Assembly (NCBI GenBank): GCA_949293185.1
Contig: CASFCQ010000006.1
Coordinates: forward strand, 3,389 to 67,388
Direction: 5' to 3'
DNA length: 64,000 nt
Origin: an uncultured bacterium
Lineage (GTDB): Bacteria; Cyanobacteriota; Vampirovibrionia; Gastranaerophilales; Gastranaerophilaceae
Under the pieces are notes generated by a model, which was not told where the DNA came from, did no database searches, and saw only the letters and a list, made by a program, of their open reading frames with translations. Position numbers and translations under genes: made by a program. Below are positions 34,789 through 51,815 of the stretch, piece after piece (positions within the stretch are counted from its first letter, which is position 1; each line of letters begins with the position of its first letter).

Positions 34789-34804
34789 AAAAAGCCTCTG
34801 ATAT

Positions 34805-35914: not shown

Positions 35915-35948
35915 TGCTTTTTACTCCATAATTGCTTAAGATTATACC

Positions 35949-36626
35949 ATGGAAATTTATTACATAAAAATTGACGAATTCTTAAAAAACACGCACAAAA
36001 CCTCGCTCGAAACTTTTTTGGACGGAAAAAATTTTGCCTCACCAAAACGTAGGCAGCAGTATGCACTGGGGCGATTTTTGATTAAATATGTTTTAAAAAA
36101 CCGTTTTAAAATCGACAACCCTAACATTCTTATTAAAGGCAAAAAGCCCTGTATATCTGAAGGGATAAAGTTCAGCCTTACGCACTCGCACAATTACGTT
36201 ATGGCTGTGTTCGACAAAGCAGAGGTTGGAATAGATTTAGAGCTTATGAAAAATCGGGATTTTGAAAAACTCTTTGAGCACTACAAACTTACCCCCGAAA
36301 ACAAAGACAAAATCACATTTTATCAGCTGTGGACAGCTTACGAAGCACGCATAAAGCTGCAGCAGCCACCGCTTTCACAGTTAAACGCAATCTTTAAAAA
36401 AGACTACTGTCTTTGTGTTTGTTCGTCAGAATCCTTAGATATAAGTAATATACTTAAAATATATGAACTCAAAAGACCTACCCACAATACAAATCCCAAC
36501 GAGCTTATCAACTTAAAACTCGTCATAGAAAGTAAAAAGAACGAAAACACGCTTGTTGCGCAGGAAATTAACACTGCTGCTTTAGAATTTGAAGAGTTAG
36601 AACCGTTGAACCTGAAAATAGAATAA
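35949..36626 (+). CDS. 4'-phosphopantetheinyl transferase (Sfp type)
   Basis: Motifs KGKKP, FSLTHS, GIDLE and WTAYEARIK. The last 223 nt overlap the convergent MMPL gene. Confidence 0.8.
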   Translation: MEIYYIKIDEFLKNTHKTSLETFLDGKNFASPKRRQQYALGRFLIKYVLKNRFKIDNPNILIKGKKPCISEGIKFSLTHSHNYVMAVFDKAEVGIDLELMKNRDFEKLFEHYKLTPENKDKITFYQLWTAYEARIKLQQPPLSQLNAIFKKDYCLCVCSSESLDISNILKIYELKRPTHNTNPNELINLKLVIESKKNENTLVAQEINTAALEFEELEPLNLKIE

Positions 36627-38593
36627 TCCATCGTAAACCCTATTATCAAAAACAAAGACAGCACATGAAACAGGTTTACACCATCTCCGGACAAGCCTAT
36701 CAACCCTATTGAAAACATTGAGCCGAGAAATGAAGGCAGAATTATTTTAAACGCATTAACATACCTGTAGATAAACGCAAGAATCACATATAATAGCAAA
36801 ATTGCCGGAGCAAACAAAATCAGACAGACTTTTCTGCAGCTGCCGACTTTTTGAGAGATGTCGTTTTTGAGGTTAATCACGGTTATCGGGTCTTTTTCCG
36901 GCTCAATAGCCTGTTTTATCGCATTCACCTCTCCGTTAACAACCATCACAGACGTATTTTCGTTATACAAAAAGTCTTTGAGCATTTTAAAGTTAGAGTT
37001 TTCAAGCGTTAAAAAATCCTCAGGCGGCTGCTCTTTTAAAAGTGCATCTATGCTTTTTTCAGGCAAAAATGCCGACGCATATGGCTTTAAAGAGTTTTTA
37101 TACAACTTCTTTATAAGTTCTCTGTTTTCAGTTTGCTGTTTTATCGACGGAACAAAACGGCTCAGCGCGTAGTATTCAATATTTTTTGCCCGCAAGAGTG
37201 CGCCTGTATTCTCTTCTTTTTCAAGGAGTTTTTGTGTATCAGGTGTCGAGGTTATTATAAAATTCAGGTTAAAATCAGTCTGAGAAAGCTGCGCATAAAG
37301 TTTTTCAGCCATTGCAAGAGATTTTGGCGGAACATACATATCCTTGATATCGTCGTTGAATTTCAGGTTAAACATGCCTGCTGCGGCAATCACAACCATA
37401 GCCGCAACAATCAAATATCTGTATTTTATATCCAAAGCTCGGAAATTAAACTCTCTCCGGTACGGAAGATTAAGTTTTTTACAAAACAGCGGATAAAACA
37501 GCACAACAGTCAGATACACAGTAACAAGTCCCGTAATTGTGTAAGTAGAAATCTGCTTTAAAAGTTCAATATTGGACAAAAGCAGCACAAAAAACGCGCA
37601 AACAGTGGTCAAAAGGCTCTGTGTAAGGCTCGGCATTATGAGCTTTAAATCCCTGTTGTGCGCAAAATAATGCAGGCAATAATCCACGCATATTCCGATT
37701 AAAGTCGAGGCAAAAACAAAAGTCAGTATGTGTATGGAATCAAAAAATACCGACGTTGTAAGATATCCAGTATACATTGCCAGAGCGAGGCTTGCGCCTA
37801 TCGGAATAAGAATTTTAAACGAATTAAAATAAAATTTGCAAAGCAGTATAATAAACAACGACGAAAGCACACATATAAGATTAATTTCTTTCATTGATTT
37901 TGAGCTTGCATAATAAGTATGCACGGGAGCGCCGGCTATATAGATTTTCACGCCTTCGTCCGATACGGAGTCTTTTAACACAACAAGCTCCTTCATCCGC
38001 TCATTAAGCAGAGTAGGCGACAGGGCAAGTTCTTTTTTTATGTTAAACTGCGCCAGCCTGTAGTATTTGCCGTCTTTTTCCGTTTCCTGAGTGCCTGACG
38101 CAGAACCAAAGCTCATCACATAGTCAGTAAGCAAAAGAAACGGGTCCTTATCAAGCGGAAGAAGCGTCAGCCCCATAGGGTTGTACAGTCTTTCATAAGC
38201 CTCCTGCTTCAGGGTTTCATACTGATTTGTTTTTATAAGATTTGCACTGTGCTGCGACAAAAGTCCGCTCCGGTATTTTTTATACGATTCTAGCATAGGC
38301 GCAACATCAGTGTTGTCAGTATAAAAAGCGTTTTTATCAAGTTTTTCAAAAAAGGTTTTAAAAGCGTCATCGAGTTTTTCATAGTCTTCGCTTTCAAAGA
38401 CAGCGTTAATTTTATTAGACTGGCGTTTGCTCAGGTCAACAAGAATCGTATCGGTTTTACTGTTAGTCAAAACAGCCTTTAGAATATTGGTTTCCGTTGT
38501 TTTTGGATTAAAAAACACAACTACGCTCAGCAGTGCAATCACTGTAATAAAAAGTATTCTCGCTATATTAAGTGGTGTTATTTTCATTTGCAA
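36404..38593 (-). CDS. MMPL/RND-superfamily exporter (ApeM-like)
   Basis: 729 aa with two blocks of TM helices separated by periplasmic domains. Confidence 0.85.
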   Translation of the reverse strand: MQMKITPLNIARILFITVIALLSVVVFFNPKTTETNILKAVLTNSKTDTILVDLSKRQSNKINAVFESEDYEKLDDAFKTFFEKLDKNAFYTDNTDVAPMLESYKKYRSGLLSQHSANLIKTNQYETLKQEAYERLYNPMGLTLLPLDKDPFLLLTDYVMSFGSASGTQETEKDGKYYRLAQFNIKKELALSPTLLNERMKELVVLKDSVSDEGVKIYIAGAPVHTYYASSKSMKEINLICVLSSLFIILLCKFYFNSFKILIPIGASLALAMYTGYLTTSVFFDSIHILTFVFASTLIGICVDYCLHYFAHNRDLKLIMPSLTQSLLTTVCAFFVLLLSNIELLKQISTYTITGLVTVYLTVVLFYPLFCKKLNLPYRREFNFRALDIKYRYLIVAAMVVIAAAGMFNLKFNDDIKDMYVPPKSLAMAEKLYAQLSQTDFNLNFIITSTPDTQKLLEKEENTGALLRAKNIEYYALSRFVPSIKQQTENRELIKKLYKNSLKPYASAFLPEKSIDALLKEQPPEDFLTLENSNFKMLKDFLYNENTSVMVVNGEVNAIKQAIEPEKDPITVINLKNDISQKVGSCRKVCLILFAPAILLLYVILAFIYRYVNAFKIILPSFLGSMFSIGLIGLSGDGVNLFHVLSLFLIIGFTMDYSIFRFNGSNSSNSKAAVLISCATSVFSFFLLSMTSFKLISSLGFVLWVGLLSSYILSILLISKDSDEQTQRQ

Positions 38594-39132
38594 TCCGTAT
38601 AGTTTATGGCTGTTTTGCTGTTTTGTGTTTCTATAACCATATTATCAATGACTTTTTGACCTTTTATGTTAATAAGTTTCAGTGCCGCTGCAGGTTTAGA
38701 ACCTTTTTTAGGTTTTAATGCCAATTCCCAGCGGTTGTTTTGCAAAGACATATAATAGATATCGAAGTTTTTTTCCAGATATGTATAGTTTTTGTTTGCC
38801 AGTGCTTTTACAATGGAGCTTATATGTTTATTCTGGTCTGTTGTGTATGAAGCAACAGATTTTACAGGATAAGTAGTTGAAAAAGTAACGCCTTTTTCTT
38901 TCTCAAACTTAAAATTTCCGCCGGATTTCAGGGTTACCGTTGAGGTTGTACTATTTTTAACAGACTTTTCCTGAGTGAATTTGCATGATGTATCGCTAAA
39001 TTCCGGCAAGTTTTTTGCTGCTTCTTTAGCAGTTATTTGGTGGTTAAAAATACTGTCTGCGTTCGCTCTCATGGTGCCTAACCCCGTTACCAAAAGCAAA
39101 AACAAAATGCATAAAATATTTTTAATTTTCAT
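38584..39132 (-). CDS. LolA-like lipoprotein-carrier fold protein (ApeL-like)
   Basis: 182 aa with a signal peptide. Its position and size match the LolA-like gene of APE clusters. Start overlaps the upstream gene. Confidence 0.6.
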   Translation of the reverse strand: MKIKNILCILFLLLVTGLGTMRANADSIFNHQITAKEAAKNLPEFSDTSCKFTQEKSVKNSTTSTVTLKSGGNFKFEKEKGVTFSTTYPVKSVASYTTDQNKHISSIVKALANKNYTYLEKNFDIYYMSLQNNRWELALKPKKGSKPAAALKLINIKGQKVIDNMVIETQNSKTAINYTDCK

Positions 39133-39538
39133 AGCTATCTATTCTCTCTTTTAAAATATCAGGTACTGTGTAGACTGTTTTTCTTGTTTCTATTTCAACA
39201 CAGATTTGCATCGTCTTTGCGCTGAAAAGTTTTGCTCCTGTTTTTTCGTCAAAAATTGTATATTTAAAATTCAAAGACGGTTCAATAGATTCCAGCTCGG
39301 TTTTAATAAGGAGTTTTTGCATAAATTCGCAGGGAGTTATAAACTTCATCTCCATTTTTGCAACAGGATAAGCATAACCTGCCTCTTTAATATCATCGTA
39401 TGTACAGCCGATTTTTGATAAAAAATCACAACGTGCAGCCTCAAGATATTTTACATAGTTTCCGTGCCAGACAACATTCATCGGGTCAAGGTCATAAAAT
39501 TCTACCTGTGTTTTATAAGTTGTTTCAATCTTTTTCAT
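39122..39538 (-). CDS. 4HBT hotdog thioesterase (ApeK-like)
   Basis: 138 aa with VEFYDLDPMNVVWHGNYVKYLE. Confidence 0.8.
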   Translation of the reverse strand: MKKIETTYKTQVEFYDLDPMNVVWHGNYVKYLEAARCDFLSKIGCTYDDIKEAGYAYPVAKMEMKFITPCEFMQKLLIKTELESIEPSLNFKYTIFDEKTGAKLFSAKTMQICVEIETRKTVYTVPDILKERIDSYEN

Positions 39539-41156
39539 CTATTGTCATCACTCCGCTCGAACAAATTTGTTCATCTCGTTTATACATATAATTTATCAAA
39601 TTATTTTTTCTTTCAAATACAAGCTTAAGTTTTTCATCAGGCTTAATAATTTTTGAAAACTTAATTTTTTTTACACAATCATTTGAAACACCGTTTCCAA
39701 AAGCGTCTGATGCAAAGAAATGCGCAAAATACAGCTGTACAACCCCCGGCAATACAGGGAATCCGTTAAAATGGCCTGTAAAGAAATTGCAGCTTAAAGG
39801 GAATGTTAAGTCATATACGGCACTGTGAGAATCTTTTTGGACTCCGAAAACAAACGGCATTGAAATATTGGTTTTAAAAATTCTTTCAAGTTTTTCTGTA
39901 TCAATTTTACCCGTCTTGGTTTTTGGAAGCTCGTGCAAAAATTTCCATTTTTGCGGAACAATTTCCACTCTGTCTTTTAAAGTGTTTTTAAAAAAAGATG
40001 TAAGTTTTAATATTGAATTATCTTTATCAAAAAACAAATCGATTCCTTTTACTGTCAACACAACTGCACATGCAAGTTTTTCACCTGACTTAAAACACCA
40101 GCAGGATTGAATCAAATGAGGCACAGAGTTTATAAGTTCTGTTTCCACCTCCGGAGCTGATACTCTTTTTTCCTGAATTTTAAAAACTCTGTCAGCCCTG
40201 CCACGCAGTACAAAATGTTTGTCATCTTTTATCTGTACAATATCGCCGAGCGTAACAGAATCCTGAATAAAAAACGGAGAAGATACAACAAGCTGAGAGT
40301 TGTCATCCGTTGATATTTTTACTCTGTTCAAAACAGTCAAGTCTTTATCATCACCACAGCTTCTGTAAGCTATTGTGCCTGTTTCCGTACTTCCGTAAAT
40401 ATCAATAACATTACCGGAGTGATTAAGATATTTAAAAAGTCCGTTATTTAATTTTGCACCTGCACTAAAAATAAGAAAAGGCGAGTAACTGTTTTTTACC
40501 TCATATTTTTGAAATTTTTCAAGAAACGATGGTGTAGAGATAAACACGCTATCTTTAAAATCCGCGTCATCTGGATAGCAGACTTCTGTTGTATCAAGCA
40601 CAAAAGACCCCCAAAAGCATAGTGGAAGCATAAAATAAAAAGAAAAAGCAAACATATGCTGCGGATGTGTTGAAGTTAAAAATCTGAACTGTGTATTATC
40701 ACATTTTGATAAAGCAAAAAACTCTTCATAAAGACAATTAGCTTCTGCTATCACATTAGCAAGAGTTTTTTGCACATTTTTTGGCTGCGAAGTTGAACCT
40801 GATGTATAAAAGTTTATTAAAACATTTTCAGGCTCTATCCTAAAAAAATCCGGCTGTTCAGCAGGTTGAAGTGATTTGTCAACAACAATGTATTCAAAAT
40901 CCAAATATTTAAGCTTCGATGCATCGGTAAGAAGAAAAATATGTTTTCCTGAAAAAATACACGAGAAAAACCACACGCAAAAATCAAACGCACATCTGCT
41001 TAAAATAACTACGTTATCTGCTTTTTGAGTGTTTAAAAACGCAGCACCTGCGGCAACAAAGTTTTTAAATTCTTTTAATAAAAAATTTTTTTCTTTGTGT
41101 ATGAACAGAGTTTTGTCATCAAATTGTTTTGTATGAAATATATCAAACAGATTCAT
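39525..41156 (-). CDS. AMP-dependent (aryl/acyl) ligase fused to FabA/FabZ-like dehydratase (ApeH+ApeI-like)
   Basis: 543 aa with adenylation motifs YTSGSTSQPK, YGSTETG and KTKTGK. The C-terminal FTGHFNGFPVLPGV is a hotdog dehydratase signature. Confidence 0.8.
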   Translation of the reverse strand: MNLFDIFHTKQFDDKTLFIHKEKNFLLKEFKNFVAAGAAFLNTQKADNVVILSRCAFDFCVWFFSCIFSGKHIFLLTDASKLKYLDFEYIVVDKSLQPAEQPDFFRIEPENVLINFYTSGSTSQPKNVQKTLANVIAEANCLYEEFFALSKCDNTQFRFLTSTHPQHMFAFSFYFMLPLCFWGSFVLDTTEVCYPDDADFKDSVFISTPSFLEKFQKYEVKNSYSPFLIFSAGAKLNNGLFKYLNHSGNVIDIYGSTETGTIAYRSCGDDKDLTVLNRVKISTDDNSQLVVSSPFFIQDSVTLGDIVQIKDDKHFVLRGRADRVFKIQEKRVSAPEVETELINSVPHLIQSCWCFKSGEKLACAVVLTVKGIDLFFDKDNSILKLTSFFKNTLKDRVEIVPQKWKFLHELPKTKTGKIDTEKLERIFKTNISMPFVFGVQKDSHSAVYDLTFPLSCNFFTGHFNGFPVLPGVVQLYFAHFFASDAFGNGVSNDCVKKIKFSKIIKPDEKLKLVFERKNNLINYMYKRDEQICSSGVMTIDEKD

Positions 41157-41161
41157 TTTTA

Positions 41162-41593
41162 TTACAAATTATGTTTCTTTTTAAAACGGATTCTAAAAAT
41201 ATATTCTATCGCAAAAAACAGCCCCAGTAAAATATAAGATACGCAGCCGTTAAAAATCATCCAAATTTTATCCGACATAAAGAGTGTTGCAACAGACGCA
41301 AAAAACTGTATGAGTAAATATATACACCAGATGTAGGTCAGATTTTTTGTATAAGCTTTTGTTTTCGGGTGCAGCTCTCCCCCGCCCTCTGAAATACGCG
41401 CAAATTTTTGTATAACTGTTTCTTTGTCAAAAAGCGAGGAAAAAAATATCAGAAAAATACAAAAGTTCATTATCACAGGGTACAATTTCAACTCTCTCAA
41501 CCCTGTAAAATAAAAAAGTGCAATAACAAAAAAAGTAAACAGGGTTGAAAAAACGAAGCCGAACTTTTGAAAAATATTACGAAGCTTTTTCAT
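41162..41593 (-). CDS. small integral membrane protein (ApeG-like position)
   Basis: 143 aa with 4 predicted TM helices. Its 4-nt overlap with the upstream ACP gene suggests translational coupling. Confidence 0.6.
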   Translation of the reverse strand: MKKLRNIFQKFGFVFSTLFTFFVIALFYFTGLRELKLYPVIMNFCIFLIFFSSLFDKETVIQKFARISEGGGELHPKTKAYTKNLTYIWCIYLLIQFFASVATLFMSDKIWMIFNGCVSYILLGLFFAIEYIFRIRFKKKHNL

Positions 41594-41844
41594 TGAGCAA
41601 GAAGCTTTTCTACCGCATCAACAACATCATCAACGGTTCTGATTTCTTTAAAATTGTCAGGCGAAATTTTTTTGTTTGTATATTCCTGTAGTCTTACAGC
41701 AAGGTCAACGGCATCAATACTGTCGAACTCTAAATCTTCAAACAAATTTGCATCAGCTGAAATTTTTTCCTGTTCAATTTCAAAATCATTGACAAGAATG
41801 TCTTTTAATACGTTAAAAATTTCATCTCTTGAATATTCTGCCAT
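41590..41844 (-). CDS. acyl carrier protein
   Basis: 84 aa with the phosphopantetheine site in LEFDSIDAVDL. Confidence 0.9.
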   Translation of the reverse strand: MAEYSRDEIFNVLKDILVNDFEIEQEKISADANLFEDLEFDSIDAVDLAVRLQEYTNKKISPDNFKEIRTVDDVVDAVEKLLAQ

Positions 41845-41856
41845 ATTTACAATACC

Positions 41857-42126
41857 TTATGCCTGAGTGTTTCTGATAAAATCAGCCAATGTTTTTACAG
41901 AATAGAAATGTTTTTTGTTTTCTTCTTTGTCGCTGCCCAAAGAAAGTTTATATTTTTTCTTTAAAGCCATACCGAGTTCCAGAGCATCAATAGAATCTAA
42001 CCCCAAACCGTCAATAAATAAAGGGGCATCAGTATCGATGTCAGAAGGCTTGATATCCTCCAGCTCCAATGATTCGACTATAAAAGTTTTTAATTCGTCT
42101 TCCAGACTCAAATTTTGATTATCCAT
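41857..42126 (-). CDS. acyl carrier protein
   Basis: 89 aa with the phosphopantetheine site in GLGLDSIDALEL. Confidence 0.9.
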   Translation of the reverse strand: MDNQNLSLEDELKTFIVESLELEDIKPSDIDTDAPLFIDGLGLDSIDALELGMALKKKYKLSLGSDKEENKKHFYSVKTLADFIRNTQA

Positions 42127-42189
42127 AAAAACATTATTGCGTAATAGATAATTAAAGTCAATTCAAAGTTATACCTACTGTTTTAAGAT

Positions 42190-42312
42190 GTCCGAGAAAA
42201 ATTCGTGATAAGGAGCAAAGCGACGTGAACGAATTTTTGGAGGGTCACATTGAAAAGGTGAGCAGTGACGGCTCGAAGGCTCGAGGCGGCAACTGCGACA
42301 CTAGATTAGATA
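42190..42312. repeat. ~85-nt intergenic element, copy 2, carrying a 37-nt GC-rich insertion (42262-42298)
   Basis: Aligns with 15485-15570. The extra segment GCAGTGACGGCTCGAAGGCTCGAGGCGGCAACTGCGA interrupts the second GTGACAC repeat. Confidence 0.7.
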
Positions 42313-42325
42313 AAAATACTGCATG

Positions 42326-42334
42326 TGGTATAAT
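42326..42334 (+). promoter_or_regulatory. extended -10 promoter TGGTATAAT facing the CRISPR array
   Basis: Perfect TGnTATAAT. The predicted TSS near 42341-42342 coincides with the ATGATG at 42339-42344. Confidence 0.4.
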
Positions 42335-42338
42335 AAAA

Positions 42339-42497
42339 ATGATGAAACAACATTCGATGATTATATTTTTTAATATAGGTTCTTTGCTGATGCTGATTAT
42401 AAGCAGCAATCTTGGGATTGACACGAGTAAGTATTGTCTGTTCTGGGCACTGGGAAATATAGCAATATACCAAATTGAGAAGAAATATAAAGGTTGA
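42339..42497 (+). CDS. possible 52-aa membrane peptide (leaderless?)
   Basis: MMKQHSMIIFFNIGSLLMLIISSNLGIDTSKYCLFWALGNIAIYQIEKKYKG. This is the C-terminal part of track ORF 42225-42497, whose N-terminal part overlaps the non-coding repeat element. Confidence 0.3.
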   Translation: MMKQHSMIIFFNIGSLLMLIISSNLGIDTSKYCLFWALGNIAIYQIEKKYKG

Positions 42498-42771
42498 AGA
42501 GTTTTGTTAATTACATATGAATTCTAACCCTAACATCAAAATGTTATAATACCAAGAGGCAAGGATAATAATCCACATTGGTTCTGATTTCTCTTAATTT
42601 AAAATATGTTATAATTGAAATTATCTAAATAACATCTTTTTTTATGTTTTGATTTTCTCTTAATTTAATTTTTTAGCAGGCGTTTTTAACCTATAATGTA
42701 TTCAGGGTAGTACCACACTCCCGCCGCACACGCATTTTACTAAGAAATCTGCGGAAAGGGGGTGAAAAAAT

Positions 42772-42846
42772 ATGACCAAGATAATAATAAAGACCGTTAT
42801 AACGGTTCTTATAACGGTCTTACAAATTATCATTTATTGGTTATAG
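42772..42846 (+). CDS. 24-aa hydrophobic peptide, type I toxin-like
   Basis: AAGGGGGTG SD lies 8 nt before the ATG. Peptide is MTKIIIKTVITVLITVLQIIIYWL. The SD pairs with upstream CACTCCC in a 12-bp GC-rich hairpin (42716-42764). A hairpin lies downstream at 42857-42887. Confidence 0.45.
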   Translation: MTKIIIKTVITVLITVLQIIIYWL

Positions 42847-42900
42847 GGTACTAAGTGAAGCTCTAAGGAAGTATTCTTTAGGGCTTCCCCCTACAATTAC

Positions 42901-42928
42901 AGTATAACATATTTGGCTTAAATATCAA
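42901..42928 (-). promoter_or_regulatory. antisense promoter convergent on the small ORF
   Basis: On the minus strand: TTGATA (42928-42923), 16-nt spacer ending in TGT, and TATACT (42906-42901). The predicted antisense RNA would cover the 3' hairpin and the 3' half of the ORF. A possible stop is the AAGACCG...CGGTCTT hairpin (42821-42790) followed by a T-rich run. Confidence 0.45.
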
Positions 42929-43543
42929 CTTTGCCAACTTTGTGTTTTTGGGCTTATATTAATTTAAAATATGTTATAATGGAATAACTTTTATTCCTTT
43001 ACTTTGCCAGGTTTTGATTTTCTCTTAATTTAAAATATGTTATAATTTTTGAGCCGGTCGCAATTTGACCACTATCGTTTTGATTTTCTCTTAATTTAAA
43101 ATATGTTATAATCTCAGGTGATTCCGCACAGCTGGCAAGCTGTTTTGATTTTCTCTTAATTTAAAATATGTTATAATGTCTAATGAATGTATTTGCATTT
43201 TTGCTCCGTTTTGATTTTCTCTTAATTTAAAATATGTTATAATGGCAAAGGCTCTAAGTCATTACCTAAAATGGTTTTGATTTTCTCTTAATTTAAAATA
43301 TGTTATAATTTTCCACCAGATTAAATCGCCGTTGATACCGTTTTGATTTTCTCTTAATTTAAAATATGTTATAATCAAGACTTAATGTTAATGTACCCCC
43401 GAGAGGTTTTGATTTTCTCTTAATTTAAAATATGTTATAATGGTAATTCAGTTCCTTTTATCAGTCTTAAGTTTTGATTTTCTCTTAATTTAAAATATGT
43501 TATAATAGGATATACAAAATTGAATAAATGATATATAATACAA

Positions 43544-43675
43544 ACGTAATATATTTTAAGTTAAGAGACCAATCATAATTGACAAGAGAATAGTTTGCTC
43601 CTCTGCTTAATTGTACGAATAGACTCATTCTCTAAACCTCAACAAAATACACTACAATGATATTCTACCTTAAAA
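43544..43675 (+). ncRNA. tracrRNA (3' end uncertain)
   Basis: Anti-repeat 43546-43579 pairs with repeat positions 1-33, with a small internal bulge and a few G-U pairs. An extended -10-like TGATATATAAT lies just upstream. Same orientation as the crRNAs and convergent with cas2. AGAGAAT / ATTCTCT stem at 43585-43633. Confidence 0.75.
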
Positions 43676-44005
43676 TTACCAGAATGTCATCTGTTTTTCT
43701 GCATTTTCGCCTGCTTTTTTCTTGTATTTTGATTGTTTATAATCATACTTGTCTATACACACAGCAAGCCCCCACTGTTTGTCCGTTATATAAAAAGCCA
43801 CTATTGAACCTGTTGAGGGTGCTATGAGTTTTAAATTTCTTATGTGCTGTTCTGTTTTGTCATAAGTTACGCAAGACCTTACATATATTGAGTTTTGCAG
43901 CATAAAATACCCTTGATTCAACAAAGATTTTCTGAACGCATTTGCCTGTCTCTGGTTTTATTTTTCCACAACAGGCAAATCAAAACACACAACAAGCCAG
44001 CCCAT
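43676..44005 (-). pseudogene. cas2: cas2 with in-frame TAA at codon 16
   Basis: ATG at 44005 lies 8 nt after the cas1 stop, with a GAGGAG SD. Reads MGWLVVCFDLPVVEK-stop(43960-43958)-NQRQANAFRKSLLNQGYFMLQNSIYVR... in one frame. The track ORF 43676-43924 is only the distal part. Confidence 0.8.
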
Positions 44006-44012
44006 ACGATAT

Positions 44013-44960
44013 TTACTCCTCATATTCCCTGTTCCTGTGTTTGTCTATGTGCAGATATTGTTCGTTTATGTCAGGCAAAAATATCTTTGAACAATCAAAT
44101 TTTGTATAAGCATCAACTATTTTTTCCACGTAAATATCTATTGTGTCAATGAGCTTGTAGCTTATGTTATCTATTTTTATTCTGTAATTTTTTATACATT
44201 CTGACAGGTATTTAAACCAGGCTTTGTAATTTTCCTGTTCGTAATCAAATTCGCACTCCTGTACAAATTGATAAAAATAATAATCAATAAAAGCCCTGTA
44301 CGGCTCCATTAAGTCATAAACAAGCGGCGTACTTTTGTATTTGCCTTTGTGGTGAATACCGAGGCTTGCAATTAGACCGTGAACTATAACAGAGCGGTAA
44401 ACCAGAGAATTTATTACTGCATAGCCGTAATTAAGACAGCCGTTTTCAAAGGTTTCTGCTGCCAGATGTTCTCTTTTCATAGGGTTGCCGATTTCGACAA
44501 AATAATTCTGCCAGTACTGTTTTGCTATGTTTGCTTCATTCATAAGCGGACGGTTTATCAGGTTATACAGGTTGTGTCCACTGCAGCCGATAAGGTCAAG
44601 ATTTTTTGCCTGATTTGTTACTTTAGCGAGCAGTATCTTTTTCCACAACTTAGTTTCAAAATCTATGTTTTGCTCTATCTGGCAATAAAAAACTTTAGGG
44701 CGTACAATCCTTTCTAAAGGTACGCTCCAACCTACGGGACGGTATGAAGTGTTGCAGTGCAGTATAACCACGTTATTTTCTAAAAGCCGTGCCAAACAGT
44801 TGTTGGAAAAAGCTATGCCCTGTGCTGCAACAATAATGGCACGTATGTCCGCTAAGGCAATTGATTTTATTTCGCCTTCTTTATTTTTGCAAAACAACAG
44901 CCCCCTCTCAACTGAGAGGTAACAATCGGGTGTAGTGATATGCAGAATATGATAACTCAT
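44013..44960 (-). CDS. cas1: CRISPR-associated endonuclease Cas1 (type II)
   Basis: 315 aa with the conserved acidic/His residue context (KREHLAAETFENGCLNYGYAV, GIHH, DLMEPYR). Confidence 0.93.
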   Translation of the reverse strand: MSYHILHITTPDCYLSVERGLLFCKNKEGEIKSIALADIRAIIVAAQGIAFSNNCLARLLENNVVILHCNTSYRPVGWSVPLERIVRPKVFYCQIEQNIDFETKLWKKILLAKVTNQAKNLDLIGCSGHNLYNLINRPLMNEANIAKQYWQNYFVEIGNPMKREHLAAETFENGCLNYGYAVINSLVYRSVIVHGLIASLGIHHKGKYKSTPLVYDLMEPYRAFIDYYFYQFVQECEFDYEQENYKAWFKYLSECIKNYRIKIDNISYKLIDTIDIYVEKIVDAYTKFDCSKIFLPDINEQYLHIDKHRNREYEE

Positions 44961-44997
44961 ATTCTGTTTTTAATAATCATTTTTTAAAAATCAATGT

Positions 44998-47900
44998 TTA
45001 AGAACTATGTTTTTTGAAATTTGCATCAGTAAGGTTTTTTACACTTGAATCAATTTCAATTCCGTTATTACTTTCTAATTTTAAAACCCCATTTGTTTTA
45101 ATTGTTCTCAACTTATACACACCAGCAGGATGTGTAACAGTGCCGGCTTTAAACTCATTCGGGATATCAACAAGACAGCCGGAGTAGAACATTTGACCGC
45201 CCGCGTACAGTTTGCAGCCCATTTCAACAAGCTTGTCTCTTACTTCCTGTGTCTTTTTGTTGGAATACACGGGCATAACTTTTACAGCACCTTTGTCGTT
45301 GTAGTAGAGTATTTGCCCTTTATGTCCTTTTGAGCATTTAAACTGTCCCTTAGTGCCTTTTGTTCCGTAGTCGCAGTATTCTCCGATTCTGTCACGTCCG
45401 TTTGAGTCTTGCTCAAGTGTACCTTCTGAAACGACAATCATAACTTTTTTGACTTTTGTTTTCTTTTTGGGATGAATATAGTCTTTAAGGTAGTTATACC
45501 ACTCGTCCGCTGAAGGCTTTTGTTCGAGCTTGTTTAAGAGGTCTGTTTTTATAGCCTCATCGACTATATTTCTTACCTTTTTATCTTTGGGTTCAAGTGT
45601 TTCCAGCGTAACTCTGTTTGTTATACAGGCTTTGCCGTTGATTATTCGTTTTCCGTATATTGTTTCAAGCGGTCTTGTGTTGCTTTTTAAGGCTTTTTTA
45701 TTTGCATAAGGATAAGGTATTATGCCGTCTATAACCTTTTTTACAACATCAGGATTAAAGCCTTCTATAACGTCTTTGTTCAGAGTTTTGTCATACTTAA
45801 ATTCTCTTGCGTAACTTATACAAATAGCATCGAGAGCGTGGTGTTTGTCGTTCTGGCGGTTTTTCTTTTCCGCATCGCCGAGTATTGCATTAAGCCCGTA
45901 TCTTTTTCGGATTGCAAAAGTTGAAGAACCGTTATTTACATAGATATGTCTGCTTTCGCCTTCCACCTGCAAGCCCCAGCCGAAAGTAAACGCTGTAATT
46001 TGCTGTGCAATTTTGGCAATATGACTTGTTTCTGCCAGTCCGTTATAACTTTCAATAAGTTTTTCACAATCTTGCGGTTTGCTTGTTAACAGTTCGTATT
46101 TTTTCTTACCGAGTTGTTTTTTTATGTCATTAAGTCTGTTAACGTAATTTGCCCAGATTTCCTTGTCTTTGGAAAGCCATTCATAAGGAGTTCGTCCCTG
46201 TTTTTTCTGGTTCTCTGCCCTGAAACAGAGCACTTTGTTATATAATGCATCATTGCCGCCCATTGTCCGCGGATAAATGTGGTCAATCTCGCATTTATCA
46301 AAGTCGGAAATTGCAATAGGCTGCCCGCTATAGATACATTTTCCGCCCTGAATCTTTAATAGTTTTGCTTTTTCAAAATTTGTCGGACTCAAAGCGTTTG
46401 CGTCAACGAGTTCCTGTTTTATCTGGTTGTTTTCTTTTTCCTGATTTTTCATATAAGATTCGGCACTCTGGGCTTTGATTCTGCCAAACAGTGAGTTATC
46501 CGCACCTTCTCTTACAAATTCAAAGATAACTTCATCGGGTTTTCCGTATTTTTCTGCAAGATAAAACAGTAAATCCCTGAAAATTTGCAGACGGTTTCTT
46601 ACAACAGGATTGGTTATACCGCCTATCATTAGATCTGTTTTTTCTCTTGTGTTTTCACCTATAGCCGCATTTTCATTCCTGTTGTCAGGTATATAGAGAT
46701 TATTCCAGCCCCCTATTTTTGACAGCATTGTGCGGATTTCTTCTTCCGTTATTCCGTCTTTTGTGTCTTGCGGGTCTATGTATTTTGAAACCTCCATATT
46801 TTGAGGATACAATTCGCCAGAGAGGATTATATCTATCATAATTTGACAGGCTCTGCGGCAAAAAGATGAACGCCCGCTGATATCAGCTTTCATAGGTTCA
46901 ATTTTGTCTATAATTTTTTGTCCGATTACGTCTTCAATTTCTTTTTTAGTAATTGTTGTATCGAGTTTATTGGCTCTGCCTTCTGTTTTAACAAGCCAGT
47001 TTTGATAAATTGTACTTATATCAGACGGGCTGAGTCTGACTTTATCACCGCTGCCGTTTGTTATTCTCAAATTTTTTAATTTTAACAAGAGCACCAGAGT
47101 AACGTTTTCGAGAGTATTTGCTTTGCAAACATTTCTTTTAGGCAGAAGTTTGCATTTGCTGATAATTCTGTTGTCGAATCTCGGAATTTTCTGCCCTAAC
47201 ACACCTTGCCAATCGTGTTCGCTGCCGAGATATTTGCGATAATCAGGGTTTACATAAGAACCGTAGGCTTCTCTATATTCGCCGTACAAAAATTCTTCAG
47301 GAGTATATTTCTTCAATTCCGGCAATTGTTTTTGAGCGTTTGTCCAAAGAGCAGTTAATTCTTTTTCAACAAGGTTTCTCGGTGCTACATAGTTTGTTGC
47401 ACGTACTTTGTTGAAATTTTGCTGGGGGTTGAACGGTTTAAATTCGTCCGGTGAGTCCTCTGACCACATGCCGAGTCTTAATGCATCATAGTAGCAGGGG
47501 TATTTGTAGTTTTCGTTTTGAATTAATTCTTCGCCGTTTTCCTGTGTGTATTTTTTAGCAAGTTCGAGATTTTCTTTGTCATCGTCAGCCTGGGCTGATT
47601 TCCAGGCCAGATTCGGGTCATACCCTCTGCGCTGCATTGCGTTATGCAGTGCTTTATATATCTGCCAGATTTCAAGTTTTCTGTTTTGAAGAAGTGCGAT
47701 TCTTAAAAGACAGGAATTATAAATCGTAGAATCCCCTTTAGCTGCAAATTCTTTTGTGAATTTTTTGTCATCTTTGCTTAAAATCTCAAGATTGCAATCC
47801 TGCCATATTTTATCAAAATATTTTTCACGTGCTTTATGAGCATTAAGGGTTCTGAAGATTCGTCTTCTGTCCCTTAATGAAGCAGCATCAGCATGATCAA

Positions 47901-48006
47901 TATCAATGATTACTGATTCCGCCTCTTGTATATCATGCCCGCAGCGTGCACAATAGCCGATGCTTGTTTTACCTAAATCGAATGCAAATACTTTTTTATT
48001 TTCCAT
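44998..48006 (-). CDS. cas9: Cas9, compact (1002 aa) type II-C-like
   Basis: RuvC-I FAFDLGKTSIGY, Arg-rich bridge helix LRDRRRIFRTLNAHKAR, HNH EIDHIYPRTMGGNDALYNKVL and RuvC-III NDKHHALDAI. Start set at MENKK (ATG 48006, AGGGGG SD). Confidence 0.95.
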   Translation of the reverse strand: MENKKVFAFDLGKTSIGYCARCGHDIQEAESVIIDIDHADAASLRDRRRIFRTLNAHKAREKYFDKIWQDCNLEILSKDDKKFTKEFAAKGDSTIYNSCLLRIALLQNRKLEIWQIYKALHNAMQRRGYDPNLAWKSAQADDDKENLELAKKYTQENGEELIQNENYKYPCYYDALRLGMWSEDSPDEFKPFNPQQNFNKVRATNYVAPRNLVEKELTALWTNAQKQLPELKKYTPEEFLYGEYREAYGSYVNPDYRKYLGSEHDWQGVLGQKIPRFDNRIISKCKLLPKRNVCKANTLENVTLVLLLKLKNLRITNGSGDKVRLSPSDISTIYQNWLVKTEGRANKLDTTITKKEIEDVIGQKIIDKIEPMKADISGRSSFCRRACQIMIDIILSGELYPQNMEVSKYIDPQDTKDGITEEEIRTMLSKIGGWNNLYIPDNRNENAAIGENTREKTDLMIGGITNPVVRNRLQIFRDLLFYLAEKYGKPDEVIFEFVREGADNSLFGRIKAQSAESYMKNQEKENNQIKQELVDANALSPTNFEKAKLLKIQGGKCIYSGQPIAISDFDKCEIDHIYPRTMGGNDALYNKVLCFRAENQKKQGRTPYEWLSKDKEIWANYVNRLNDIKKQLGKKKYELLTSKPQDCEKLIESYNGLAETSHIAKIAQQITAFTFGWGLQVEGESRHIYVNNGSSTFAIRKRYGLNAILGDAEKKNRQNDKHHALDAICISYAREFKYDKTLNKDVIEGFNPDVVKKVIDGIIPYPYANKKALKSNTRPLETIYGKRIINGKACITNRVTLETLEPKDKKVRNIVDEAIKTDLLNKLEQKPSADEWYNYLKDYIHPKKKTKVKKVMIVVSEGTLEQDSNGRDRIGEYCDYGTKGTKGQFKCSKGHKGQILYYNDKGAVKVMPVYSNKKTQEVRDKLVEMGCKLYAGGQMFYSGCLVDIPNEFKAGTVTHPAGVYKLRTIKTNGVLKLESNNGIEIDSSVKNLTDANFKKHSS

Positions 48007-48029
48007 ACAACCCCCTGTATGATGAGGTA

Positions 48030-48038
48030 AGTATAACA
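48030..48038 (-). promoter_or_regulatory. extended -10 promoter TGTTATACT for cas9
   Basis: Lies in the 42-nt gap between the acyltransferase stop (48049-48051) and the cas9 ATG. The -35 is poor. Confidence 0.45.
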
Positions 48039-48048
48039 CATTGAGTTT

Positions 48049-48792
48049 TTAAATTCTATCTTTTATTACGGAATTTATACGGCGGCGAAGCCTGATTTCA
48101 TTGATGTCCGGAGTTTTAAAATCGTCAATGTTTATTGTGTCATTGATTTTCAGGTAATAGTTAACCGGCTTTTCTCCTGCGTCGTATATTTTTTGGTGTT
48201 TTGCAAGGAATTTATAATCACAGGTTATGTGCACGGGCACAATAGGCGCATTTGCATATATTGCAACTGAGGCTGCTCCGCTGTGGAGTTTTAGGTCTTC
48301 TCCTTCAACACTGCGTGTGCCTGTCGGGAAAATTATTACGTTATATCCTTCTGAAAGTGCGTGTTTTGCTTCTTCTTTAAGTGTGTCGTTATTTTCATCA
48401 TTTATAAGGTAGGTGGATTTTACGATGTTGCTCATAATCGGGTTTTTCTTTATTTCATTTTTTACAACACACAAGGTGTCGGGTATTAAGCCGATTAAAA
48501 GTACGATATCTATGTAGCTGGGGTGGTTTGCAACAATTACACTGCCTTTGAGTTGTGTTAAAAAATTTTTCTGTTCGTCTGTTACGTTAAATTTTATAGA
48601 ACCGGTTTTTTGCATAAAATCGCTGAAAAAAGCCCAGAGGTTATGCACAACACGACAAAAAACTTTGCGTCTGTTTTCTTTTTTTATAAACAAACTCATC
48701 AATGGTATTACGACAAGCCCGAGCACAAGCGAACCTGCTCCAAAAAAAATGAACGAAAAAACAACCACAAACGCACGGAAAAACCTTTTCAT
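48049..48792 (-). CDS. lysophospholipid / 1-acylglycerol-3-phosphate acyltransferase family (ApeD-like)
   Basis: 247 aa with an N-terminal TM segment, the HX4D motif NHPSYID and FPTGTRS. Confidence 0.85.
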   Translation of the reverse strand: MKRFFRAFVVVFSFIFFGAGSLVLGLVVIPLMSLFIKKENRRKVFCRVVHNLWAFFSDFMQKTGSIKFNVTDEQKNFLTQLKGSVIVANHPSYIDIVLLIGLIPDTLCVVKNEIKKNPIMSNIVKSTYLINDENNDTLKEEAKHALSEGYNVIIFPTGTRSVEGEDLKLHSGAASVAIYANAPIVPVHITCDYKFLAKHQKIYDAGEKPVNYYLKINDTINIDDFKTPDINEIRLRRRINSVIKDRI

Positions 48793-49431
48793 TTATGATT
48801 GACTCCTGACAATGAAAAATACTTTATCGCTGCTTGAAAAGCTGTCTGTTTTGCTTTCGCAAAAATTTTTAAAGTTTTCAAATTCGTTTCCGGCATCAAT
48901 CGCAGCGCTGCATGTGTTTGTACATAATTCGATTTTTACGGAGTCTTTTGTCGGTGTAGCAGAAATCAAACAGCCACAGGCTTTTAAATCTCTGTATGCA
49001 TCAGCAAAACAGTACAAGACCTCACTGCCTTTTTGCGCACACATAAGACTTTCCAAAAGCCCTGCACTAAAGGTGTTTTCTCCGGCAGCAAGCGCGTTAT
49101 AACTCTTTTTTATTTTGTTGAGCAAAGAAAACTGTCCTGCCACGCAGTTGTGAACAGATGTGCTGAAAGTGAAGGGAGAAACTTCGTTGTCCTCCTGATA
49201 CTGTGCTATTATTTTATCCAACCTGTCCAGTTCGCCGTATTGAGAGGCAAAAACAATTTCTGTTTCATTGCCGTTGTAGGCTTTGTGCATAACACTGAGC
49301 GCAGCTTTATCCACAAGGCTGAGTTTTCTCCTCGTCATAGGCGGCATAAAGGATAAATCAATAAGATTTTCTGCGTTTTGCCCGTCAATAAAATTTATGT
49401 TAGATATATAAAATACACTTTTTTCATTCAT
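48793..49431 (-). CDS. ketosynthase-like protein without full KS domain (chain-length-factor/ApeC-like)
   Basis: 212 aa, abutting the acyltransferase gene with no gap. Resembles a KS N-terminal fold. Assignment is by position in the cluster. Confidence 0.6.
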   Translation of the reverse strand: MNEKSVFYISNINFIDGQNAENLIDLSFMPPMTRRKLSLVDKAALSVMHKAYNGNETEIVFASQYGELDRLDKIIAQYQEDNEVSPFTFSTSVHNCVAGQFSLLNKIKKSYNALAAGENTFSAGLLESLMCAQKGSEVLYCFADAYRDLKACGCLISATPTKDSVKIELCTNTCSAAIDAGNEFENFKNFCESKTDSFSSSDKVFFIVRSQS

Positions 49432-49449: not shown

Positions 49450-51063
49450 ATGGCAAATATTTCTATCACATCATACAGCGCAATTTGTGACCTCGGTACA
49501 AACGTAAAAGAAATTTTTGAAAACTCGCTTTTGGCGGGCAAAAATTTTTTTACGCCAGATGAAAATATTATAAAAGGTAAAAAACTTTATCTTGGCAAAG
49601 TCAGTGCTGTACTGCCAAAAATTAAAGAGGCAAAATTTGATACAAGGACAAATGCACTGCTGTTGCATTGCAGCAATGCAATACAAAACGATATTGACGC
49701 TGTTGTAAAAAAATACGGTAAAGACAGAATCGGTGTTGTTATTGGTACAACCAATGCCGGCGTTAACGAATATGAAAAAAGCCACGAGGTTTTCCACTCG
49801 CAAATAGGTTCTCCCGCTCTATTTTTAAAGGAGCATCTCGGGCTTAAAAGCTATTGCAGCGGAGTTTCTACAGCCTGCACCTCGGGAATAAAAGCCTTTT
49901 CAACGGGGGTAAAACTTCTTGAAAACGGAATCTGCGATGCTGTTTTATGCGGGGCGGCGGATGCTGTGTCTAAAGTTCCTGTATTCGGCTTTAGCGCACT
50001 TGAAGTTATGTCTCAATCAAACTGCAAACCGTTTTCTAAGAACAGAGACGGTATTAATATAGGCGAGGGCGCTGCTCTTTTTATACTGGAAAAAGATGTG
50101 AATAAAGGCATTAGAATACTCGGTATCGGAGAAACCTCCGATGCATACCACGGAGCAACCCCTGACCCTGAAGGTACTCAGGCTGCGGCAGCAATTACAC
50201 AGGCGCTTGAGCAGGCAGGATTAAAACCTGAAAATATTGATTACATCAACCTTCACGGCACAGGCACTGTATCAAATGATATTATGGAAGCAAATGCCGT
50301 GTACAAGGTTTTCAAAGATAAAGTGCCGGTCAGCTCTACAAAATCTTTGACCGGACATTGCCTCGGAGCATCATCCGGAGTGGAAAGCGCATTATGCCTT
50401 GCTTTTCTTGAGGACGAAATTAACAAAGAAAAATTTCTTATTCCTCACAATTTTGACGGGGTTTATGATGATACCCTGCCGGAGATAAAACTTGCCAAAC
50501 ACAATGAAAAGGCTGAAAATAACCGTTATGTTATGTGTAATGCATTCGGGTTCGGCGGTTCTAACGCGGTTATCATATTCGGCAAAAATCAAGCATCAGA
50601 GCAGAAGAGCGATTGTTTTGAAACAGACCTGTCAAAAATTTTGCCGCATGATGCGCCGATGATACTTATTGATAAAATTTTGGACGTGAATATTAAAGAA
50701 AATTACGTAAAAACGCAAGTTGAAATCAACAAAGACAAGGTCTTTTATGATGCCGCCATGGGCGGAGTTTCTCCGCTTGCAGGTATCGAGTTTATGGCTC
50801 AAACAATCGGATGTTATTCGTATTTTAAGCGCGGCGGCGGTGACCCCAAAATAGGTTTCCTTCTTGGCAGCCGTTCTTACAATTGTTCGCTCGAAAAATT
50901 TGAGAACGGAAAAAACTATGAAGTTATTGTAAGAGAAGTGTTTGGCGACAATGAACTTGTTTCGTTCGAGTGTTTTATCTATAATGATGGTATAGAATGT
51001 GCAAAAGCAGTGGTTAACGCATATCAGCCCGAAAATTTTGATAATTCCAAAATTGAACTTTAG
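49450..51063 (+). CDS. beta-ketoacyl-ACP synthase fused to hotdog dehydratase (ApeO+ApeP-like)
   Basis: KS active-site Cys in GVSTACTSG, His residues in HGTGT and GHCLGASS, and C-terminal ILPHDAPMILIDKI. Start moved to MANISITSY (49450). Confidence 0.85.
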   Translation: MANISITSYSAICDLGTNVKEIFENSLLAGKNFFTPDENIIKGKKLYLGKVSAVLPKIKEAKFDTRTNALLLHCSNAIQNDIDAVVKKYGKDRIGVVIGTTNAGVNEYEKSHEVFHSQIGSPALFLKEHLGLKSYCSGVSTACTSGIKAFSTGVKLLENGICDAVLCGAADAVSKVPVFGFSALEVMSQSNCKPFSKNRDGINIGEGAALFILEKDVNKGIRILGIGETSDAYHGATPDPEGTQAAAAITQALEQAGLKPENIDYINLHGTGTVSNDIMEANAVYKVFKDKVPVSSTKSLTGHCLGASSGVESALCLAFLEDEINKEKFLIPHNFDGVYDDTLPEIKLAKHNEKAENNRYVMCNAFGFGGSNAVIIFGKNQASEQKSDCFETDLSKILPHDAPMILIDKILDVNIKENYVKTQVEINKDKVFYDAAMGGVSPLAGIEFMAQTIGCYSYFKRGGGDPKIGFLLGSRSYNCSLEKFENGKNYEVIVREVFGDNELVSFECFIYNDGIECAKAVVNAYQPENFDNSKIEL

Positions 51064-51086: not shown

Positions 51087-51815
51087 ATGAGTAAAGAGAT
51101 ACTTGTAACCGGCTCGTCCAGAGGCATAGGCAAAGAAATAGCGCTTTATCTTGCAAACAACGGCTATGACATTGTTTTGCACTGTAGAAATAACATTGAA
51201 AAAGCACAGGAGGTTCAAAAACAAATTGAAGCAGCCGGACAAAAAGCACGGATTCTGCAATTTGACGTAAAAGACCGCAAAAAAAGTTTTGAAGCTCTTG
51301 AAAATGATATTAAACAAAACGGCGTTTATTTTGGGGTCGTACTCAACGCCGGCATTGCAAGAGATAACGTCTTTCCGATTATGACAGAAACAGAGTGGGA
51401 TGACGTTATAGACACAAACCTCGGCAGTTTTTATAACGTGCTAAAACCGGTTATTATGCCAATGATTGAAGAAAGAGTTAAAGGAAGAATCGTTACTTTA
51501 TCATCAATTTCGGGTTTAAGAGGCAACCGCGGACAGGTAAACTACAGTGCGTCTAAAGCCGGTATTATCGGTGCGACTAAAGCATTGAGCCTTGAACTTG
51601 CTAAAAGAGGAATAACGGTTAACTGTGTTGCTCCCGGTGTTATAGAATCTGATATGACAAAAGATTTACCAGTTGATGAAGTCAAAAAGCTCATCCCGAT
51701 GCGCCGTATGGGCACTTGTAAGGAAGTTGCAAGCCTTGTTAACTACCTTATGAGTGATGATGCATCATACATTACGGGTCAGGTAATTTCTGTCAACGGG
51801 GGGCTTTATTCGTGA
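51087..51815 (+). CDS. 3-oxoacyl-ACP reductase (SDR, ApeQ-like)
   Basis: 242 aa with TGSSRGIG, NAG and YSASKAG. Confidence 0.9.
   Translation: MSKEILVTGSSRGIGKEIALYLANNGYDIVLHCRNNIEKAQEVQKQIEAAGQKARILQFDVKDRKKSFEALENDIKQNGVYFGVVLNAGIARDNVFPIMTETEWDDVIDTNLGSFYNVLKPVIMPMIEERVKGRIVTLSSISGLRGNRGQVNYSASKAGIIGATKALSLELAKRGITVNCVAPGVIESDMTKDLPVDEVKKLIPMRRMGTCKEVASLVNYLMSDDASYITGQVISVNGGLYS

Follow-up and report, generated by a model that had tools for sequence, protein, structure and literature searches.

Aryl polyene (APE) clusters, as described for Escherichia coli and Xenorhabdus (apeA-apeR; PMC8253772), encode a set of functions that runs from a ketosynthase/chain-length factor (KS/CLF) pair through to an RND/MMPL-like exporter and a methyltransferase. 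CRISPR systems of type II-C, as described for Neisseria meningitidis and Campylobacter jejuni, are compact defence loci built around cas9. Here we consider a stretch of DNA in which a locus of the second kind lies inside a cluster of the first. The window (the whole stretch analyzed, 64,000 nucleotides (nt) in length) is from a Candidatus Gastranaerophilales bacterium, and the sequencing runs that contain the sequence are of chicken gut. Positions 42127-48048, between the gene for an ApeD-like lysophospholipid acyltransferase (LPLAT) and that for the first ApeE/F-like acyl carrier protein (ACP), hold cas9, cas1 and cas2, a convergent predicted trans-activating CRISPR RNA (tracrRNA) and an array of 36-nt repeats. 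Our reading, to which we assign a probability of roughly 0.8, is that this is a self-contained type II module that was inserted once, at a boundary between transcription units, and was later exchanged or lost while the two halves of the cluster remained undisturbed.

The genes on either side appear to share the set of functions of the E. coli and Xenorhabdus clusters, which also comprises two dehydratases, tandem ACPs, an adenylating enzyme, a thioesterase, an LPLAT and a Lol-like protein. They share too the local order apeC-apeD-apeE-apeF-apeG-apeH/I-apeK-apeL-apeM (PMC8253772). Unlike in those clusters, ApeH is fused to ApeI and ApeO to ApeP, the gene in the ApeJ position has been relocated to the cluster end, the KS and ketoreductase (KR) genes face the other way as a divergent set, and a CRISPR-Cas locus parts apeD from apeE; the cluster is, besides, that of a non-photosynthetic relative of the cyanobacteria. 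A literature search returned no paper in which either APE clusters or this Cas9 were connected with Gastranaerophilales or Melainabacteria.

With the II-C loci of N. meningitidis and C. jejuni, the inserted block has in common a minimal cas9-cas1-cas2 operon without csn2 or cas4, a Cas9 of ~1000 residues, an NMENI-type Cas1, 36-nt repeats that start with GTTTTG and end in the extended -10 box TGtTATAAT, and an array and tracrRNA that are convergent to the cas genes. Transcription of CRISPR RNAs (crRNAs) from promoters internal to the repeats is documented in such II-C systems (PMC5965381). The difference lies in the window's Cas9, the sequence of which is very divergent and is filed by NCBIfam as 'Cas9d'. 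A further parallel is provided by 'Cas9 shuffling in situ' (PMC12669027, Extended Data Fig. 9), in which, as here, the cas module has a history of divergence different from that of its immediate flanks and is present or absent between close relatives. Unlike in that case, the substrates for recombination here would be the two halves of a biosynthetic cluster and not a defense island.

Position and alleles of the CRISPR-Cas block

Read along the minus strand, the genes run ApeC-like KS, LPLAT, cas9, cas1 and cas2, followed by ~1.5 kb of non-coding DNA that comprises the tracrRNA, the array and assorted relics, and then by two ACPs and the distal ape genes (Table 1). The first-pass annotation of the window had drawn the same map (KS-like, LPLAT, cas9, cas1, cas2 and ACPs), and both its genes and its coordinates were reproduced by listing the open reading frames (ORFs) and scanning them with profile hidden Markov models (HMMs). 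The same ORFs and matches place the block exactly at the acyltransferase/ACP (apeD/apeE) junction, as had been claimed, and the only family matches among the ORFs of 42127-48048 are cas9, cas1 and cas2. The cas9 ATG (48006) does lie 42 nt past the LPLAT stop codon (48049-48051) on the same strand. All of the sequences with which the window was compared, denoted below by L numbers, are metagenome assemblies. A scan of Joint Genome Institute metagenomes yielded few close relatives, and it was chiefly by looking up identical proteins that informative contexts were obtained.

In APE clusters from soil metagenomes (L031, L032, L035 and L036), the LPLAT and ACP genes lie 18-60 nt apart, in the order KS-like, LPLAT, ACP, ACP, membrane protein, ligase. 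L030 is an empty allele, with 41 nt between LPLAT and ACP and with both flanks 98.8% identical to those of the carriers L026 and L027, which hold CRISPR-Cas blocks of 6.3 and 4.8 kb, respectively, at the equivalent point. Because the two genes are contiguous both in the distant clusters and in L030, the CRISPR-Cas block is an insertion, and adjacency of acyltransferase and ACP is, on the arrangements compared, the ancestral state. The contiguity that the first-pass annotation described for other ape clusters, and the empty site that it suggested looking for, are therefore both found. The opposite possibility, that the adjacency is not conserved in this lineage, holds only in part: the halves are apart in L003, L020 and L022, and contiguous in L030 and the distant clusters.

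The locus is polymorphic within species, occurring as a full block, as a deletion of cas9 and cas1, as a 5' stub of cas9, or as an empty site. In L024 and L025, LPLAT and ACP are separated by 550 nt, with synteny on both sides as in the window. Despite this empty look, these are deletion derivatives, since they retain the 5' untranslated region (UTR) of cas9 and its first 10 codons. In five contigs with the window's exact ACP (L004, L005, L009, L010 and L011), cas9 and cas1 are missing and cas2 is truncated at its 5' end, but its 3' end remains, as do the tracrRNA region and between one and three repeats. Unrelated genes follow LPLAT in L003, and unrelated genes precede the ACP half in L020 and in L022/L023. 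With deletions, stub and splits all at one point, the junction is a recurrent breakpoint.

Occupied junctions are found in at least three diverged lineages: in every full-length contig from the species group of the window and in L001 (LPLAT 93% identical), in L054 (LPLAT 70%, Cas9 76%) and in L026/L027 (LPLAT 59%, Cas9 81-82%). When the window is compared with L026, saturation of synonymous sites is seen in cas genes and flanks alike; this, together with the shared position, makes the insertion at the junction an ancient one. Cas9 orthologues that are 62-72% identical occur in four unrelated genomic contexts, and the cassette therefore moves on longer time scales. Comparison of the k-mer and codon usage of 42127-48048 with that of its flanks had been proposed as a check, and the cas genes proved indistinguishable from the rest of the window, with a genome-typical tetranucleotide profile (z = -1.5) and GC content typical of the window. 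A recent foreign origin of the cas genes was rejected on these grounds.

Promoters and transcription

The first-pass annotation held that the block cuts an operon, so that the distal ape genes would need a new promoter, and pointed to a repeated element upstream of them as its possible source. Neither suggestion is supported by comparison with relatives. A predicted sigma70-type promoter abuts the start of the first ACP gene in all lineages: the motif TTGACT-17-AATAAT/TATAAA is conserved in seven (window, L004, L020, L022, L024, L027 and L030) and is kept with the island, without it (L030) and in split clusters (L020/L022). Because the -10 box is a mere 6 nt from the ACP ATG, a leaderless ACP mRNA is likely, and this geometry, too, is conserved in all lineages. 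The repeated element, which resembles a miniature inverted-repeat transposable element (MITE), is confined to the window strain and was rejected as the origin of the ACP promoter because it is absent from all relatives, which keep the same promoter. An antisense small ORF stands between the two halves in the window, L024 and L020, and likewise counts against the idea of a cut operon in need of a new promoter. Disruption of an operon is thus not supported by the conserved motifs. In both halves of the cluster, the ratio of nonsynonymous to synonymous divergence (dN/dS) is 0.03-0.29, which indicates continued purifying selection on each.

A promoter is also predicted for cas9 itself. Its extended -10 box, TGtTATACT, is conserved in the window, in L001, in L027 and in the stub of L024; in L028, where the cassette is found in a different genomic context, the cas9 promoter reads TGTATAAT. 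No terminator is predicted between LPLAT and cas9, so that some transcripts may read through into cas9. The RNA sources consisted of one chicken-gut run labeled RNA-Seq and one unlabeled run, both as sparse Logan contigs without direction, and the promoters described here are those that, from their sequence, are probably used. Co-regulation of cas9 with apeC-apeD appears unlikely.

Probable exchange of alleles between lineages

Synonymous divergence (dS) between the window and L001 is ~1.2 in the outer KS/KR genes and falls to 0.24 in cas9, 0.16 in cas1 and 0.04 in cas2. Divergence of L030 from L027 amounts to 5-14% in the final ~350 nt of LPLAT, abutting the junction, and to 0-2% elsewhere. 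The ranking of lineages by Cas9 identity is also incongruent with that by LPLAT identity. The dip in dS, the divergent tract and the incongruent ranks would all be accounted for if homologous recombination between ape flanks had exchanged occupied alleles with empty ones. We tentatively raise the further possibility, which we consider rather less probable than its negation, that the cluster halves act as long homologous arms, a 'landing pad' at which the CRISPR-Cas9 cassette, or its absence, is swapped between diverged Gastranaerophilales species. A stronger form of this idea would add read-through into cas9 from the ape promoter, tying defense to the expression of an envelope lipid.

Proposed history and alternatives

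The history that we favor would begin with one insertion, in an ancestor of one clade of gut Candidatus Gastranaerophilales, into the short spacer between ApeD and ApeE. That spacer would have been a boundary between transcription units, the predicted promoter of the ACP operon abutting its start codon, and cas9 would have brought, or evolved, its own extended -10 promoter. On this account, the insertion interrupted no operon and left both halves under purifying selection. Rapid turnover of spacers would have followed, along with exchange of cas alleles among lineages via the ape flanks, several partial or whole deletions and, in some lineages, breakage of the cluster at the same point. What is observed comprises the gene identities, where the genes lie, the existence of alleles that are empty, deleted or occupied, the conservation of the promoter motifs and the pairing of repeat with anti-repeat; that a single ancestral insertion lies behind them is what we infer.

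Several points weigh against this history. The sequence of the L030 junction does not fix its polarity, and this allele could be one that was never occupied, was imported, or arose by clean deletion. Between the window and L026, Cas proteins are 82-90% identical compared with 41-80% for the flanks, as would also be expected from repeated lateral transfer into the site. The split clusters are represented by one to a few contigs each, and the promoters are predictions made from matches to consensus and from conservation. The window's spacers had no credible protospacer when the array was compared by blastn with 50,697 phage records or, for two spacers, in exact scans of IMG/VR.

Two biological alternatives deserve consideration. 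One is functional coupling, whereby the ape promoter drives a common transcript of apeC-apeD and cas9-cas1-cas2, and the locus is retained by selection for co-regulation. The genes are on the same strand, the LPLAT stop and the cas9 start are only 22-43 nt apart in all four occupied lineages, the spacer between them has no terminator-like site, and the arrangement persists across lineages with saturated synonymous sites, all of which would be expected under coupling. However, cas9 has a conserved extended -10 box of its own, a promoter of that type also stands at the cassette in an unrelated context, and the same cassette occurs in at least four other genomic contexts. The cassette is, moreover, present or absent within a species, and its repeated deletions leave the ape genes intact, so that we regard coupling as improbable. 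That a mobile CRISPR-Cas cassette integrated repeatedly and independently, with the acyltransferase/ACP junction as its preferred site, seems to us less probable again. It would account for the cassette in several unrelated contexts, for an empty allele in the same species as carriers, and for Cas proteins that are more similar than their flanks with incongruent identity ranks, but that incongruence is equally explained by allele exchange through flank homology. It sits poorly with a left boundary that is identical in all lineages, with a cas9 5' UTR that is homologous throughout, the stub of L024 included, and with dS that is saturated between the cas genes of the window and L026. Nor is there an integrase or transposase among the ORFs of the block, or a target-site duplication or terminal or inverted repeat at its boundaries in the comparison of L030 with L027.

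An artefact of assembly or binning, such that the block is not truly inside the ape cluster, has a negligible probability. Repeats and MITEs by the junction could in principle have mis-joined contigs in metagenome assemblies, but more than 10 independent contigs, 20-390 kb in length and differing in sample, assembler and study, show both junctions, with collinear flanks. A single insertion followed by exchange and loss therefore remains our preferred account. It reveals no new mechanism, the system being of a known kind in an unusual but explicable location. Its value lies in one chromosomal site at which gain, retention, exchange and loss of CRISPR-Cas are recorded in alleles that are occupied, partly deleted, reduced to a stub, empty or split, and in the indication that a defense locus inside a biosynthetic cluster need not disturb it if it lands at a transcription-unit boundary.

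Cas9 and the question of subtype

The window's Cas9 matches the NCBIfam model NF049971 ('Cas9d', type II CRISPR RNA-guided endonuclease Cas9d) over its full length with 1016 bits, TIGR01865 with 261 bits, and HNH_4 of Pfam. Generic Cas9 HMMs cover its RuvC-II/HNH/RuvC-III core only; a RuvC-I motif, FAFDLGKTSIGY, is present at the N terminus. Full-length matches to NF049971 of 971-1066 bits are obtained with the window protein, the family members P0135, P0152, P0195 and P0237, and the Cas9 of L026. An AlphaFold2 (AF2) model of the window protein (mean predicted local distance difference test score, pLDDT, 79) was used to search solved structures with Foldseek, and the best matches, which were full length, were SaCas9, ThermoCas9 and Nme1Cas9 (E 1e-29 to 1e-24), with St1Cas9 also among the closest. 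By subtype, the nearest folds are thus II-A (SaCas9) and II-C (ThermoCas9, Nme1Cas9 and GeoCas9), and the II-D structures 9lgi and 9k32 rank below the II-A and II-C Cas9s. Identity to solved Cas9 structures is 15-18%. Assignment to the former II-C2 (MG33-like) group was not supported, BLASTP giving no significant match to the N-terminal 400 residues of MG33-3.

Neither csn2 nor cas4 is found in the window locus or in the 8 related loci examined, the gene content of which is identical. With an NMENI-type Cas1 and neither of these genes, the locus is II-C by architecture. The first-pass label of type II-C consequently stands as far as gene content and Cas1 type are concerned; it does not extend to the effector, which matches NCBIfam 'Cas9d' end to end. 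What it has in common with II-D (Cas9d; PMC12669027, PMC9755519) is this match to the whole NF049971 profile, with ~1000 bits. II-D loci are said to share cas1-cas2-cas4 (PMC12669027), and, unlike these, the present locus lacks cas4, as do all the contexts examined. On present sequence evidence, then, the locus is type II, II-C by architecture, with an effector that NCBIfam names Cas9d; the rule based on gene content and the name of the NCBI model currently give different subtype labels (II-C and II-D).

These proteins point to a large, uncharacterized family of ~1000-residue Cas9s in gut Gastranaerophilales, for which the sequence itself reveals the tracrRNA and the orientation of the repeats. 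The Cas9 clusters P0121-P0240 are 988-1037 residues long and 58-98% identical to the window protein, and are apparently typical of the order; at least 119 of the 120 listed are full length, one being a fragment of 791 residues. In the window's cas2, codon 22 is changed from GAA to TAA (43958-43960), whereas 7 relatives keep GAA and an intact 115-residue protein. The nonsense codon may disable spacer acquisition in the window strain, or may be an assembly error.

Array, spacers and tracrRNA

The array consists of the repeat GTTTTGATTTTCTCTTAATTTAAAATATGTTATAAT and 8 spacers of 29-30 nt, and its trailer repeat (42945-42980) retains the 3' half only. On the plus strand, TGtTATAAT terminates every repeat and TATAAT (43534-43539) lies upstream of the predicted tracrRNA, so that transcription of the tracrRNA and crRNAs most likely proceeds on that strand and converges on the cas genes, and the crRNAs would start at the -10 boxes embedded in the repeats. 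The tracrRNA is predicted from anti-repeat pairing and from conservation. Repeat and anti-repeat cofold with -41.8 kcal/mol, 31 of the 36 repeat bases being paired in a duplex over the first 33. Among the window, L001, L027 and L028, mean column identity is 92% over the 180 nt that separate the array from cas2; the cas genes of L028 are only 71-79% identical at the nucleotide level, yet its array-cas2 stretch is conserved. In L028, the repeat has U changed to A and the anti-repeat A changed to U, which is one compensatory pair by inspection, and both duplexes fold. Rfam scans of positions 41500-44500 of the window and of 8250-10050 of L004 (E <= 1) gave zero matches, tracrRNA and inserts included.

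Spacer sets are almost wholly distinct among strains. The sole shared spacer, common to L002, L006, L007 and L013, is that at the trailer end, furthest from the cas genes, and new spacers therefore enter at the cas2/tracrRNA end. Two spacers of the window, at 43047-43076 (TTTTGAGCCGGTCGCAATTTGACCACTATC) and 43310-43339 (TTTCCACCAGATTAAATCGCCGTTGATACC), resemble each other and may target the same gene in related phages.

The flanking APE-type cluster

That the flanks are APE-type, as the first-pass annotation proposed, is borne out by HMM search, which returned ApeP-like, ApeI-like, Ketoacyl-synt_2, LPLAT, tandem ACP and thioesterase matches in canonical order. The ApeP-like domain scores 60.9 bits; the ApeI-like domain scores 26.4 bits, under the cut-off of 28.5, and is among the precomputed matches of relatives. 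The core APE set is present (a KS/CLF pair, a KS, a KR, ApeI and ApeP dehydratases, tandem ACPs and the ApeH adenylating enzyme), and the whole looks like a complete APE-type cluster, the product of which, by gene content, would be an aryl-polyene-type lipid or pigment. LPLAT orthologues in relatives are 59-98% identical. The divergent KS-ApeP/KR/KS genes are followed by fabG, fabD and fabH, and the homologue of the 318-residue protein in distant clusters is encoded between the ligase and the thioesterase.

The MMPL-like, O-methyltransferase and 318-residue proteins of the window (33832-38593) are 92, 95 and 88% identical, respectively, to those of the L024 lineage, and only 71, 86 and 73% identical to those of conspecific strains that otherwise match at 95-100%, which makes a recombinant mosaic of the cluster's distal end.

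Table 1. Features of the window, in order of position along the plus strand (aa, amino acids)
Feature	Positions	Strand	Evidence or remarks
ApeJ-position acyltransferase-like protein, 318 aa	33832-34788	-	Weak Lip_A_acyltrans matches
O-methyltransferase	34805-35914	-	Pfam/NCBIfam matches
ApeM-like transporter, 729 aa	36404-38593	-	Weak MMPL/HAE3 matches
ApeL-position protein, 182 aa	38584-39132	-	No family match; positional orthologue in distant APE clusters
ApeK thioesterase	39122-39538	-	Clear HMM match
ApeH-ApeI ligase-dehydratase fusion	39525-41156	-	AMP-binding, ApeI-like
ApeG-like membrane protein, 143 aa	41162-41593	-	No family match; positional orthologue in distant APE clusters
ApeF ACP	41590-41844	-	PP-binding
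ApeE ACP	41857-42126	-	PP-binding
Predicted ACP-operon promoter	42133-42161	-	TTGACT (42156-42161), 17 nt, AATAAT (42133-42138); ends 6 nt before ATG
MITE-like dispersed repeat, 124 nt (the '85-nt element' of the first-pass annotation)	42189-42312		Strain-specific insertion
Small hydrophobic ORF, 52 aa	42339-42497	+	Antisense to ape genes, divergent from ACP operon
Degenerate repeat (42580-42615) and partial repeat (42646-42668)	within 42580-42944		Array relics
Conserved insert of ~280 nt in array trailer	42669-42944		Repeat relics either side; no Rfam match
CRISPR array	42945-43506	+	8 perfect 36-nt repeats (43011-43506) and degenerate trailer repeat (42945-42980)
Predicted tracrRNA, ends approximate	43546-43660	+	Anti-repeat, then conserved stem-loop; convergent with cas genes
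cas2	43676-44023	-	TIGR01573/Cas2_II on intact orthologue; window copy has E22* nonsense
cas1	44013-44960	-	TIGR03639 cas1_NMENI 159.6 bits (cut-off 120); PADLOC Cas1_II 207 bits
cas9, 1002 aa from ATG 48006	44998-48006 (ORF 44998-48039)	-	NF049971, TIGR01865, HNH_4
Predicted cas9 promoter, extended -10 TGtTATACT	48030-48038	-	25 nt upstream of ATG; then GGGGG Shine-Dalgarno (48011-48015)
ApeD-like LPLAT	48049-48792	-	PF01553, 73.6 bits; left edge of insertion
ApeC-like KS/CLF-type protein	48793-49431	-	PF13723 Ketoacyl-synt_2, 107 bits
KS-ApeP dehydratase fusion	49450-51063	+	Pfam ketoacyl-synt, ApeP-like; start 49450 from relatives' 537-aa gene calls
ApeQ-like KR	51087-51815	+	Pfam adh_short, KR
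ApeR-like KS	51812-53044	+	Pfam ketoacyl-synt

Sequences between the array and the ACP gene, and minor observations

The stretch 42580-42944 is 96-97% identical in L010/L011. Within its ~280-nt insert are a stretch that resembles an anti-repeat (42896-42925) and a long terminator-like hairpin (42790-42821, minus strand); the hairpin thus stands with the array on one side and the ACP genes on the other. The 52-residue ORF is preceded by its own TGgTATAAT box and has a homologue upstream of ACP, on the minus strand of the respective contigs, in L024 (~8790-8935) and L020 (~2130-2270); it is missing from L027/L030. A second conserved antisense ORF, of 47 residues, is found in L024 and L020.

The repeated element noted by the first-pass annotation at ~42190-42312 is real, and a second copy, 89% identical, lies at 15478-15556. 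Related strains all join 42313 straight to 42188 and lack the element at this position; more copies are found elsewhere in L002, L004, L005, L009 and L010. The depth of its contig in two chicken-gut runs, 258x and 75x compared with roughly 0-9x for other bins, shows it to be multi-copy. The element has an internal hairpin, and the copy at 42189 carries an extra GC-rich segment of 37 nt.

In L004, positions 8307-8686 are ~380 nt of unrelated sequence after LPLAT, seen also in L005, L009, L010 and L011. A pair of 50-nt inverted repeats in L004 (8396-8445 and 9613-9662), carrying TTGAAA-17-CATAAT, brackets the residual cas2-tracrRNA-array. The right-hand copy (region 9530-9735) precedes a hairpin-terminated, small-RNA-like stretch that is absent from the window. 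In L020, a PBECR3-domain protein, of a phage-associated nuclease family, is encoded directly upstream of the ACP half (160-1956).

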